A model generated the notes under the pieces. It ran no database searches, was not told the DNA's origin, and saw only the letters and a list, made by a program, of their open reading frames with translations. Shown in pieces: positions 724-2,392 of a stretch of DNA of 4,971 bases; positions within the stretch are counted from its first letter, which is position 1, and every line of letters begins with the position of its first letter. The stretch is from the IMG/VR virus record IMGVR_UViG_2698536476_000014. One strand, given 5' to 3'. Source of the DNA: a virus (Duplodnaviria; Heunggongvirae; Uroviricota; Caudoviricetes). Made by a program: the position numbers and the translations under genes.

Positions 724-888
724 CTAGATTTTAAAGTATTTATCTTTTAGAGATGTAGATGTAAAACTTTTCGCCTTTGAAAATTTTTTGTCATCAGAAG
801 GGCTTATGAACTCATCTTTTTTGTAGGGAACCGCTAATGCTGCATCACGTCTGCGAGGCAGCTTGCTTACTTCCTCGCGCTTTTTCAT
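724..888 (-). CDS. Possible small basic protein (54 aa, MKKREEVSKLPRRRDAALAVPYKKDEFISPSDDKKFSKAKSFTSTSLKDKYFKI), last gene of the kinase operon
   Basis: ATG (886-888) lies 2 nt after the kinase stop, with AAGGA 9 nt upstream. The stop abuts the terminator hairpin. It is absent from the ORF track, presumably because of a length cutoff. No homolog recognised. Confidence 0.3.
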   Translation of the reverse strand: MKKREEVSKLPRRRDAALAVPYKKDEFISPSDDKKFSKAKSFTSTSLKDKYFKI

Positions 889-890
889 GA

Positions 891-1937
891 TCAGTTATCC
901 TTTAATAACCTATACAGTTTTGTAGGGGTACATCCTGAGGATATTGTTAAGTTCGTAGCACGCCTTTTCCGCCCATCATCGTATAAACGAAAACCAGTAG
1001 TAGACGAATTTTCTGCGTCAAAAACTATAGACAGTATAGCGTCCCCAGACTTTTTTTGCCATTCGCATGTGCCGTTAGTTGGTTTCGTCATCTGTAGACG
1101 CCAGTCAAGAACGCCATCACTTATAGCTGAGAGATCGTTTAGTACATCTAGTACGGATTGATATCTTTCATTTGGATCTACATGAATGCATTTGTTCACT
1201 ATTGTTATTAATTTTTTATGTATATGGGGAGGATACTCTTTTAATGGATAGCAGCCATTAATTATCGACTCTCTGAGTTGTTCAATCGTGCTAAATGCAG
1301 ATCTTTCTCTTTCAAAATTATCATGTCCAACACACATTCTATATATGGTTAATCCTGCCTGATATATGTCATATGTGAAATTATAATCATTTGTTGATAA
1401 AGAAAAATATTCCGGTGGCACATGAAAATGATATCCAAACTCAGGCGCAGCTCTCGATTCCTCATTGACTAACTGAGATAATCCAAAGTCAGATAGCATG
1501 GCCTCATTTCTGTTTGATATCATAATGTTATTAGGTTTTATATCAAAATGCATAAGACCTTTTGAGTGTATATGATAAAGTCCACTTAAAAATTGAATGG
1601 AATACCGTATTATCTCCCTGCTTGTAAGATTATTTTTTTTCATTAATTGGTTTAGCGAACCATTATGATAAAATGGCATGGCTATATAGATATTGCTCTC
1701 ACATTGAGCAGCATACTGAACTTGCACAATATTTGGATGTGCATGTTTATAGAGAAGCCTTGCTTCATTAAAGTAGTCGTCGTGGTTAGTGTTTTCTTTT
1801 TTTTCTATTTCTTTAATCACCAAGTCATGAGCTAGGTGTCTGTCATGAGCCAGATATACTTTTGAAAAACAACCCTGTTCTTCTAGATCACTAATCCATT
1901 CGAATTCTACATCAGCTCTTTTGTATGGAGTTAGCAT
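891..1937 (-). CDS. stk: Eukaryotic-like (Hanks-type) protein kinase, 348 aa, in the lambda rexAB-equivalent position; resembles the prophage stk kinase of Stx phage 933W as I recall it
   Basis: Kinase motifs in the translation: beta3 Lys (LVIKEIEKK), catalytic loop HFDIKPNN, DFG (LSDFGLS), APE-like PPEY, and a degenerate glycine loop (QGCFSKV). There is a roughly 80-aa C-terminal extension. The gene symbol comes from recalled synteny, not a search. Confidence 0.75.
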   Translation of the reverse strand: MLTPYKRADVEFEWISDLEEQGCFSKVYLAHDRHLAHDLVIKEIEKKENTNHDDYFNEARLLYKHAHPNIVQVQYAAQCESNIYIAMPFYHNGSLNQLMKKNNLTSREIIRYSIQFLSGLYHIHSKGLMHFDIKPNNIMISNRNEAMLSDFGLSQLVNEESRAAPEFGYHFHVPPEYFSLSTNDYNFTYDIYQAGLTIYRMCVGHDNFERERSAFSTIEQLRESIINGCYPLKEYPPHIHKKLITIVNKCIHVDPNERYQSVLDVLNDLSAISDGVLDWRLQMTKPTNGTCEWQKKSGDAILSIVFDAENSSTTGFRLYDDGRKRRATNLTISSGCTPTKLYRLLKDN

Positions 1938-2392
1938 CCCCTTACCTCCGCAGATAGTGCAGCCAAAACAGCTTCATTTGTTTCAGTTGTAAAACCAGAA
2001 TTATCGATTCCATTTATATTGCGGTGTGACTTCAATATTTCTTTATACTCGATCTCTGTTAGGTTCAATGATGATTTCATGCCAGATTTTCTAATAGTGT
2101 AATATTTTCTTACATCACTGCTTGAAAATGCTTCTTGAATAACAGCTTCTATATAAAGGCGGTCAATGCTAAGATTATCAGAGTTTGATTCAGTAACGCG
2201 TATGGCAGCTAATTCAACATTATATAAATTAAGAATGTCGAGGATGTTATTTCTCACATACTTTAATTTTTCTGGTGTGTCTAAGGTCGAAGGTATTTTA
2301 ATAACATCAACACATTTGAGTGCAGACTCATTAGTGCAATATACAACAAAAGATGTAACTTTGGGCGCCGCTCTAACACCTAGTATTCTCAT
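1931..2392 (-). CDS. Hypothetical protein, 153 aa, translationally coupled to the kinase
   Basis: Its stop overlaps the kinase start (ATGCTAA, 7-nt overlap). Same AT-rich composition as the kinase. No domain recognised. Confidence 0.6.
   Translation of the reverse strand: MRILGVRAAPKVTSFVVYCTNESALKCVDVIKIPSTLDTPEKLKYVRNNILDILNLYNVELAAIRVTESNSDNLSIDRLYIEAVIQEAFSSSDVRKYYTIRKSGMKSSLNLTEIEYKEILKSHRNINGIDNSGFTTETNEAVLAALSAEVRGC

Follow-up and report, generated by a model that had tools for sequence, protein, structure and literature searches.

The DNA analysed here (the window, 4,971 nucleotides in total) is the immunity region of the Stx phage 933W, with 100% nucleotide identity over positions 56-4812 to AF125520/NC_000924 and to other Stx phages. 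Its gene order, N-nutL-tM-L0081-stk-L0083-L0084-cI-cro-cII-O, is the same as in the 933W annotation (AF125520), and region 724-2392 consists of the three genes L0081, stk and L0083, located behind the 933W repressor gene (Table 1). The window differs from 933W itself in that N and O are truncated by IS629 ends. These ends are linked by a 56-nt inverted repeat (I1, 98% complementary) that pairs 1-55 with 4812-4867, and the end at 1-55 matches IS629 ends in two of the compared sequences (L002 and the cassette-less LC616034-type phage, L003). As a single contiguous piece, the IS629-flanked arrangement was present in 0 of 5,426 complete E. coli genomes.

Table 1. Features of the 933W-type immunity region, in window coordinates.
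Feature	Position	Strand	Description
IS629 (IS3-family) end	1-55		Gene N truncated here; inverted counterpart of the IS end at 4812-4867
nutL	401-467		Annotated in AF125520
Presumed pL/oL	482-701	-	Non-coding, AT-rich (33.6% GC), between tM and nutL
tM intrinsic terminator	702-725	-	CCCGGCCTCAGCGCCGGG then T-run; annotated in AF125520; terminator scan match at 725-704
L0081	724-888	-	54-aa basic protein, final cassette gene
stk	891-1937	-	Hanks-type (eukaryote-like) kinase, 348 aa
L0083	1931-2392	-	153-aa RuvC-fold protein
Hairpin GGTCGCAGAGATGCGGCC	2417-2434	-	Stem-loop of the cI-orf113 operon terminator in phage-1717-type phages
Direct-repeat copy 1	2440-2458 (15-mer 2444-2458)	-	Repeat family D6
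orf113 / L0084	2460-2801	-	DUF3024 protein; Pfam PF11225, PADLOC candidate PDC-S43
Direct-repeat copy 2	2811-2843 (15-mer 2815-2829)	-	3' of the 933W cI stop, ahead of the orf113 ribosome-binding site
cI repressor	2862-3569	-	HTH and S24 peptidase domains (Pfam); first gene of the pRM operon
pM and oR1-3	3562-3632		Annotated in AF125520
Second IS629 copy end	4813-4971		Sits in the ori iterons of gene O (iterons annotated in AF125520)

Stk carries its kinase domain at residues 21-260, followed by a C-terminal domain (261-348). It matches Pfam PF00069 (E-value = 2e-46; 158.8 bits against a cut-off of 31.7), and residues K42, H130, D132, K134, N137, D150, F151 and G152 are invariant in 23 homologues, as expected of a Hanks-type kinase. 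More than 20 PADLOC PD-T4-6 models were also matched, the strongest with 1e-37 across the whole profile, and these models have no curated cut-off and may be matched by any Hanks kinase; mad6 was matched at 7e-50. With its intact catalytic motifs and abortive-infection logic, Stk resembles the Hanks-type Ser/Thr/Tyr kinases PD-T4-6 of E. coli, Stk2 of Staphylococcus and mad6 of MADS. The stop of L0083 overlaps the start of stk by 7 nt (ATGCTAA), and L0081 starts 2 nt past the stk stop. L0081 belongs to PHROG 4063, a family of unknown function, and its homologues are found 3' of stk only in enterobacterial copies (L008, L088, L092, L132-L147). Neither L0083 nor L0081 matched any Pfam or PADLOC model. 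PMC3564112 states that the cassette is transcribed together with cI. Stk is said there, and in PMC3681748 and PMC6356687, to abort infection by HK97, all three citing Friedman et al. (2011), and the literature also describes the kinase as having little or no activity in the absence of infection. Stk alone may suffice for exclusion. A crude scan of 2393-2470 on the minus strand, which did no better than on shuffled sequence, gave no sigma-70-like site upstream of L0083. The 933W stk operon is an already characterised locus, a prophage abortive-infection gene behind the repressor, and atypical composition is standard for such cargo. In the literature searched, with the primary 933W papers outside the search, we found no compositional analysis of the operon and no mention of the direct-repeat origin, the decapitated hairpin or the association of L0083 with the kinase across the family, all described below.

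The first-pass annotation had reported a sharp compositional break at 724-2392, with about 28% GC against about 52% in cI and about 38-52% in orf113. The trough is real and goes far beyond chance, but the quoted values are unrepresentative and the step amounts to about 9-10 points, not about 24. The GC content is 35.5% in 724-2392, compared with 45.8% in 56-723, 44.0% in 2393-4812 and 49.4% in the whole 933W genome, while the means of 60-nt windows are 35.6% for the cassette (22-57%), 45.0% for cI (30-57%) and 44.3% for orf113 (30-62%). Sliding-window and codon-usage analyses both bear the trough out. Among the 1669-bp windows of 933W the cassette is the genome-wide minimum: the lowest window begins 4-5 bp away from its start, and no more than 0.04% of the windows have a GC content as low or lower. 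Its synonymous codon usage deviates strongly from that of the rest of 933W (G = 228, df 41, p ~ 1e-27), with ATA at 43 versus 9, CTA at 22 versus 2.6 and AGA at 27 versus 9 codons per 1000. GC3 is 0.284 in stk and 0.266 in L0083, against 0.403 in cI and 0.465 in orf113 (Fisher p = 0.003 and 0.001), and the dinucleotide signature of the cassette lies within the top 3.7% of 933W windows. Within stk, the kinase domain has 33% GC and the C-terminal domain 42%.

Such a trough might be a by-product of proteins rich in Lys, Asn, Ile, Tyr and Phe, or a local fluctuation, and carry no evolutionary meaning. The encoded proteins do lean in that direction, with FYMINK residues at 33% versus 24% in the rest of 933W and GARP residues at 18% versus 28%. 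However, it is at synonymous third positions, where the codon test given above applies, that the deficit is greatest (GC3 0.27-0.28), and a fluctuation is opposed by the genome-wide minimum and by a segmentation LLR of 28.7, which exceeds every block shuffle (null maxima of 14-16 with 30- and 100-bp blocks and 25.0 with 300-bp blocks). We regard this explanation as highly improbable, and protein composition or chance as the sole cause is ruled out by the GC3, synonymous-codon and shuffle results.

Two GC steps had been proposed, at about 720 and about 2400, and only the right-hand one proved sharp. An unbiased three-segment change-point model placed its breaks after 481 and after 2414. At 2416 the 100 nt on the left have 35% GC and the 100 nt on the right 55% (p = 0.007); with 200 nt on each side the values are 32% and 48% (p = 0.001). 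The homology junction with phage 1717 at 2416/2417 agrees with the change-point. The boundary near 2393-2443 does adjoin the first direct-repeat copy, as had been noted, and the repeat is non-random (two 15-bp matches observed against 0.01 expected). At 724 a step from 46% to 28% is seen at +/-100 nt, but the GC-rich terminator hairpin accounts for it; there is no step at +/-200 nt (39% versus 36%, p = 0.6) and none at +/-400 nt. The trough thus runs to about 481, since the pL/oL region has only 33.6% GC and 724-1100 (L0081 and the Stk C-terminus) has 39.8%, while the core trough is 1101-2392 with 34.3%. The pL/oL region contains a promoter-like site at 513-485 on the minus strand (promoter scan; no enrichment over shuffles). 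It is phage backbone and no part of the cassette, and window positions 465-723 are kept in the cassette-less LC616034-type phages and in phage 1H12.

Comparison with cassette-less relatives upheld the view of the cassette as a mobile accessory block of the moron or defence type, as the same cI and orf113 are followed by other cargo between the same joints. The LC616034-type Stx2a phages share 465-723 and 2439-4271 with the window and carry a 993-bp NYN-domain cargo in place of the cassette. Phage 1H12 shares 465-723 and 2834-4815 and has a different 1-kb cargo, and phage 1717 shares 652-723 and 2416-2838. Because these relatives carry other cargo between the same joints, the interval between the repressor operon and tM is a swappable cargo slot like that of lambda rexAB. 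The cassette also occurs elsewhere as a DNA unit: window 696-2399 at 79% nucleotide identity in [Enterobacter] lignolyticus, beside Mu-like tail genes, window 702-2392 at 75% in Erwinia aphidicola and window 1030-2432 at 88% on a Klebsiella plasmid. Like rexA-rexB of lambda, it lies between the cI stop and the terminator ahead of pL/oL, and it shares with it expression from pRM in the lysogen and abortive infection of other phages (for 933W, expression as stated in PMC3564112). The rex slot is likewise below its neighbours in GC (40.6% versus 45% for cI and 50% for N), but it is only mildly AT-rich, with the stk cassette about 5 points lower, and the proteins are unrelated. The cassette also resembles lambdoid morons in the sense of Hendrix and Juhala (e.g., HK97 gp15), being present in some phages and absent from collinear relatives, with a distinct base composition, its own terminator, prophage expression and a benefit to the lysogen. 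It departs from them in having three genes instead of one, no own promoter detected upstream of L0083 by the crude scan, and a reported place on the pRM transcript.

Both joints of the slot can be traced in the sequence. Downstream, the tM hairpin stands 3' of every cargo variant (LC616034-type, 1H12 and 1717) and 3' of the cassette in two further enterobacterial copies (L088, L092); tM travels with the cassette and forms the downstream joint. Upstream, the hairpin at 2417-2434 has no T-run in the window, where the cassette comes next, whereas in phage 1717 the same hairpin is followed by TTTTTTATT; the terminator scan did not call the hairpin of the window as a terminator, and it marks the upstream joint. 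The first direct-repeat copy reads EETFG-stop in the sense direction (2457 down to 2440), the second reads GNQWPEETFG-stop, and their genuine counterpart is the 3' end of the phage 1717 cI (...ASQWPEETFG*). Both copies are therefore relics of the 3' ends of repressor genes other than 933W's own cI, and the repeat would serve as a recombination joint. Repressor 3'-end relics and terminators as joints would give a concrete picture of cargo exchange in immunity regions. The two repeat copies bracket orf113, which matched PF11225 at 1e-30 and PDC-S43 at 4e-41 and has a backbone-like GC content of 44.4%. This gene is a small module of its own: phage 1H12 shares the cI but lacks orf113, and in phage 1717 it stands behind another cI. 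A literature search on DUF3024 returned nothing relevant.

The low GC content had been attributed to recent horizontal acquisition from a low-GC donor, and here the comparison with relatives did not agree. On such a reading the cassette entered the 933W lineage too recently to have drifted toward the composition of E. coli or the phage. It is in keeping with the near identity of the Stx-phage copies (at least 99.9%), with relatives in low-GC Morganellaceae such as Proteus penneri (cassette 34% GC) and Xenorhabdus (32%), and with the GC1/GC2/GC3 values of stk (44/34/28) and L0083 (42/36/27), which match a genome of about 35% GC without third-position excess. The equilibrium behind this match, which the low-GC-donor model also predicts, was taken from regressions reportedly due to Lawrence and Ochman. 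Against this, enterobacterial prophage copies whose Stk is 48-87% identical remain at 35-38% GC between flanks of 47-54%, with no rise in GC with divergence, and the closest copies outside E. coli (75-88% nucleotide identity) have 37-38% GC in hosts of 50-54%. The 23 diverged viral contigs (L132-L155; Stk 46-81% identical) stay at 30-39% between flanks of 37-54%. Even in Proteus penneri the cassette lies below its flanks (40%), and the same GC step accompanies the order cI-DUF3024-L0083-stk-L0081 at deep divergence (37-69% aa identity), an order also seen in viral contigs L133-L141. A scan of the genomes of 185,579 species yielded no near-identical copy in a low-GC organism, the best being 57% identical at the amino acid level. 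The 933W deficit itself falls inside the family spread (z -0.8 to -1.5), and compared with its flanks the kinase is shifted towards AT in 75 of 80 genomes across phyla (mean -6.6 points) and in 29/29 viral contigs. A recent import of this kind is therefore unlikely, although a Morganellaceae-like low-GC phage pool is a possible ultimate source. What the near identity of the Stx-phage copies does indicate is that the spread of the cassette within E. coli is recent; its association with immunity regions is old. As the trait has outlasted deep divergence in hosts with 50-54% GC, low GC is a long-standing property of the cassette lineage and not a dated footprint. It marks cargo that is mobile, not one that came recently from a given low-GC donor. 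The trough locates the cargo and its joints within a few bases (2414 against 2416/2417), but neither dates the acquisition nor names the donor, because in all the enterobacterial phage backgrounds sampled the cassette keeps to about 35-38% GC.

A stable trait may also be a selected one. AT-rich DNA and rare codons (ATA, CTA, AGA, TTA) could hold a potentially toxic kinase very low in the lysogen, or recruit H-NS-type silencing. The AT shift across 75/80 host backgrounds, with a slope of 0.76 and a negative offset when cassette GC is regressed on flank GC (80 genomes), would fit such selection, as would the strong enrichment of rare codons, the low Stk activity in uninfected cells described in the literature and the near-identical GC of L0083 and the kinase across loci (r = 0.98). 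However, mutational AT bias of mobile elements gives the same pattern, and the remaining cargo types of this slot, with 41-44% GC, are no more than mildly AT-rich. We consider selection possible but rather doubtful as the source of the trough.

The explanation that we favour, and hold to be quite probable as a whole, identifies the low-GC block with the L0083-stk-L0081 cassette of 933W, a self-contained and exchangeable cargo in the post-repressor slot whose AT-richness is a stable attribute of its lineage. Judging from the joints, it would have arrived by recombination at short sequences common to immunity regions, with the relic of an S24 repressor 3' end (…EETFG-stop) and its terminator hairpin as the upstream joint and the tM hairpin as the downstream one. 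In the lysogen it would be transcribed from pRM together with cI and orf113, as the literature also indicates. The transcript would pass the hairpin at 2417-2434, whose U-tract was presumably lost when the cassette joined (read-through being deduced only from the missing T-run), and end at tM. According to the literature, Stk is nearly silent until activated by superinfecting HK97, upon which the infection aborts. The composition (35.5% GC, GC3 of about 27% and many ATA, CTA, AGA and TTA codons) is, on comparative grounds, a stable cassette attribute, and L0083 may act as a functional partner of the kinase, as a sensor or regulator.

L0083 was recognised as an RNase-H-like protein of RuvC fold by fold comparison only, and profile searching of PDB sequences turned up nothing above noise (E 0.36). 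Its sequence identity with RuvC is 12-16%, and in a low-probability but fold-consistent hhalign alignment R7 and R65 fall on RuvC D7 and E66. The acidic tetrad of E. coli RuvC (D7, E66, D138, D141) is not reproduced in L0083, which has Arg at the first two positions. Among the homologues, R7 is found in 77/78 and R65 in 74/78 (otherwise Lys), while E68 and E140 are invariant and may match part of the RuvC site. With its remodelled active site L0083 is probably non-nucleolytic. It also differs from the RuvC resolvase in its context, since it always stands beside the kinase and not among ruvABC. PD-T4-6 is defined as a single-gene system. Unlike PD-T4-6, for which PADLOC lists no partner-gene model, the kinase has a RuvC-fold homologue of L0083 directly upstream in 79 of 80 genome loci and in 29/29 divergent viral loci. 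A literature search on defence by a RuvC-like protein and a kinase gave nothing relevant. We tentatively put forward, as a reading that may well prove wrong, that L0083 is an obligate partner of Stk and that the kinase and the RuvC-fold pseudo-nuclease (invariant R7/R47/D52/R65/E68/R78/E82/E87/E140) make up a two-gene anti-phage system, conserved in Proteobacteria, Bacteroidota, Cyanobacteria and Ignavibacteria and catalogued now only as a single-gene kinase. If so, L0083 might gate the activation of the kinase by sensing either a phage protein or phage DNA of a branched or recombination type. The kinase is almost never found without this RuvC-fold neighbour, which lies outside current defence-system definitions.

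Megablast against phage records led to a 100% identity of positions 56-4812 with the Stx2 phage 933W and many other Stx1/Stx2 phages, and the gene map was transferred from the GenBank annotation of 933W. Given this match, the kinase operon of the first-pass annotation is the already known stk cassette of 933W (L0083-stk-L0081).

Features of the window
Feature	Position	Strand	Remark
IS629 (IS3-family) ends	1-55 and 4813-4971	inverted orientation	flank the immunity region
N	53-235	minus	truncated in window; 933W annotation
nutL	401-467	minus	933W annotation
tM terminator	702-723	minus	933W annotation
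L0081	724-888	minus	933W annotation
stk	891-1937	minus	933W annotation
L0083	1931-2392	minus	933W annotation
L0084/orf113	2460-2801	minus	933W annotation
cI	2862-3569	minus	933W annotation
pM/pR and oR1-3	between cI and cro		933W annotation
cro	3648-3875	plus	933W annotation
nutR	between cro and cII	plus	933W annotation
cII	4014-4310	plus	933W annotation
O	from 4343	plus	933W annotation

Sliding-window GC and codon usage analyses showed that the low-GC block noticed earlier at 724-2392 is real and highly significant. Specifically, it has 35.5% GC, against 45.8% (56-723) and 44.0% (2393-4812) in the flanks and 49.4% in the 933W genome, and the lowest-GC 1669-bp window of that 61.7-kb genome starts 4-5 bp from the cassette start. 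The contrast first claimed (about 28% against about 52% in cI) was overstated, as it compared extreme 60-nt windows; on average such windows have 35.6% in the cassette and 45.0% in cI, while orf113, described as intermediate (about 38-52%), averages 44.3%. Concerning GC3, L0083, stk and L0081 rank first, third and fourth from the lowest among 77 933W genes, with 0.266 for L0083 and 0.284 for stk compared with 0.465 for orf113 and 0.403 for cI (Fisher p = 0.001 and 0.003). Synonymous codon usage also differs from the rest of 933W (G = 228, df 41, p ~ 1e-27), ATA, CTA, AGA and TTA being 3- to 8-fold commoner, and the dinucleotide signature distance lies in the top 3.7% of 933W genome windows. 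ATA and AGA reach 43 and 27 per 1000 in the cassette, and 933W has the tRNA genes ileZ, argN and argO upstream of stx (933W record 21120-21371); that these tRNAs bear on how AT-rich cargo is expressed is speculation. A second very AT-rich 933W gene, L0079/p19 (933W record 8536-9006; GC 35.7%, GC3 0.268), lies immediately left of N, beyond the window; it shows the second-highest codon deviation in the phage and is probably another moron.

An unbiased three-segment likelihood model placed the breaks after 481 and 2414 (LLR 28.7; block-shuffle null maxima 14-16 for 30- and 100-bp blocks and 25.0 for 300-bp blocks). The trough (482-2414) thus shares its right end with the cassette (about 696-2416) but not its left end. 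Of the two steps expected at about 720 and 2400, the right one is sharp around 2416 (35% to 55% GC over ±100 nt, 32% to 48% over ±200 nt) and adjoins direct-repeat copy 1, as had been noted, whereas the left one was misplaced. The step at 724 (46% to 28% at ±100 nt) is purely local, arises from the GC-rich terminator stem and vanishes over ±200 or ±400 nt, because the pL/oL backbone (482-701) is AT-rich (33.6% GC) and L0081 with the C-terminal domain of the kinase Stk (724-1100) is less so (39.8%). This domain (residues 261-348; 891-1100) has 42% GC and a GC3 of 0.35, and the kinase domain (1101-1937) 33% and 0.27. In the Stk family W279 and W293 never vary, so the C-terminal domain is ancestral rather than recently fused.

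The low GC had been read as a sign that the cassette came recently from a low-GC donor. In line with this, stk and L0083 have the codon-position GC expected at equilibrium in a genome of about 35% GC, with regression constants reported by Lawrence and Ochman (1997), and Morganellaceae are plausible long-term hosts. However, a Stk profile scan of 185,579 species, each represented by one genome, recovered no low-GC genome with a near-identical copy, the best match having 57% amino-acid identity, and diverged copies stay AT-rich against their flanks across the family. In the 80 loci kept, kinase GC follows flank GC (r = 0.86, slope 0.76) but is below it in 75 (mean -6.6 points, Wilcoxon p = 3e-14), L0083 GC is almost equal to kinase GC (r = 0.98), and the 933W deficit falls inside the family spread (z = -0.8 with the window flanks, -1.5 with the phage genome). 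The cassette is likewise below its flanks in 29/29 divergent viral loci (IMG/VR), 12 of which have a detectable S24 repressor just upstream; enterobacterial-type viral copies, with Stk 46-81% identical, have 30-39% GC and flanks of 37-54%. All five genes stand in the order repressor-DUF3024-L0083-stk-L0081 in Proteus penneri and several viral contigs, with 37-69% amino-acid identity, and the Proteus penneri-type order shows the same GC drop at the DUF3024/L0083 border (0.389 to 0.324). Taken together, these comparisons show that both the immunity-region linkage and the AT-richness are old. Stx-phage copies are all at least 99.9% identical because the whole imm933W region, not the cassette alone, spread recently within E. 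coli. The comparative data thus do not support a recent import from a low-GC donor.

Comparison with relatives without the cassette revealed different cargos between matching flanks. LC616034-type Stx2a phages share 465-723 (93%) and 2439-4271 (94%), with 993 bp between them coding for a 285-aa NYN-domain protein; phage 1H12, lacking orf113, matches 465-723 and 2834-4815 and has a 1-kb insert coding for an unrelated 299-aa protein; phage 1717 (Sakai-type immunity) matches 652-723 and 2416-2838 and bears a third kind of cargo. The space between repressor operon and tM is therefore a cargo slot, positionally equivalent to that of lambda rexAB. GC is 41-44% in the other cargos and 40.6% in the lambda rex slot, so the stk cassette (35.5%) is the most AT-rich occupant among those seen. 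Outside this slot, 696-2399 has 79% nucleotide identity with an [Enterobacter] lignolyticus locus adjoining Mu-like tail genes, 702-2392 has 75% with an Erwinia aphidicola locus, also with a DUF3024 gene upstream, and 1030-2432 has 88% with an IS1-cut copy on a Klebsiella variicola plasmid. The mobile unit is RBS-L0083-stk-L0081-terminator, in which the L0083 stop and stk start overlap by 7 nt (ATGCTAA) and L0081 begins 2 nt past the stk stop. The swappable slot and these copies uphold the earlier view of a mobile accessory or defence cargo. In LC616034 and about 40 Stx2a phages like it, cI and orf113 are as in 933W (98% identity); their NYN-domain gene (4017-4874 of the LC616034-type sequence), with weak PADLOC HEC-09 and NYN matches, may encode an alternative defence cargo. 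The orf113 homologue of phage 1717 (4001-4421), behind the Sakai-type cI, has 82% nucleotide identity without an intact ORF and appears to be a pseudogene.

The 15-mer CCAAACGTCTCTTCA at 2444-2458 and 2815-2829 is non-random (0.01 expected). In gene sense, copy 1 (2440-2458) reads EETFG-stop and copy 2 (2811-2843) GNQWPEETFG-stop; the intact counterpart is the true C-terminus of phage 1717 cI (...ASQWPEETFG*), so both are leftover 3' ends of a different, phage-1717-type (Sakai-type) S24 repressor gene. A further relic (IASQWADETFG*) lies upstream of L0083 in [E.] lignolyticus. The copies bracket orf113 and phage 1H12 has one fused, shortened form of both, which fits gain or loss of orf113 through recombination between them. 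Just downstream of copy 1, the hairpin GGTCGCAGAGATGCGGCC (2417-2434) is a terminator stem-loop common to phage 1717, where a T-run follows and the operon ends; in the window the cassette replaces the T-run, lost at the exact cassette start, with 1717 homology ending at 2416 and the GC change-point at 2414. The tM hairpin (CCCGGCC...GCCGGG plus T-run) stands behind every cargo variant, and behind the cassette in non-lambdoid contexts too. Short common sequences (repressor 3' relics, the 2417-2434 hairpin and the tM hairpin) would likely have served as recombination joints. This anatomy is a by-product of moderate interest, the compositional finding as stated being of low interest.

Stk belongs to the Hanks-type kinases (PF00069, 2e-46); its catalytic Lys, catalytic loop and DFG motif are invariant, and it matches the PADLOC PD-T4-6 and mad6 models. 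Secondary literature describes a kinase co-transcribed with cI (PMC3564112), little active in uninfected cells and activated by HK97 infection, which is then aborted (PMC3564112, PMC3681748, PMC6356687). In 79/80 genome loci across phyla and 29/29 divergent viral loci, the gene immediately preceding the kinase encodes an L0083 homologue. This RuvC-fold protein has no PADLOC or Pfam entry, and its family comprises about 250 clusters (50% identity, E<=1e-10), nearly all single-domain and of about 150-165 aa. In family members from many phyla, R7 (77/78) and R65 (74/78), otherwise Lys, occupy the RuvC D7 and E66 positions, and G5, P10, R47, D52, E68, R78, E82, E87 and E140 are invariant. We infer that L0083 may be a functional partner of the kinase (sensor, regulator or substrate) rather than a canonical nuclease; the conserved pair is also a by-product of moderate interest. 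Only the enterobacterial branch has L0081 (54 aa), and orf113 (DUF3024) matches the PADLOC candidate PDC-S43.

Finally, with N cut short by one IS629 end after about 60 codons and O interrupted within its ori iterons by the other, the source prophage is expected to be defective in antitermination and replication but to retain cI and the stk cassette. The exact contiguous arrangement occurred in 0 of 5,426 complete E. coli genomes; alternatively, with a left IS629 arm of 55-56 nt, the window could be a short-read contig ending in a repeat. The iterons (4690-4812) appear as partly palindromic repeats of about 19-20 bp in tandem, and the right IS629 copy is inserted at the sixth. A 19-nt inverted repeat (402-420 and 3909-3927, 95% complementary) inside annotated nutL and nutR probably represents the nut elements common to both N-utilisation sites.
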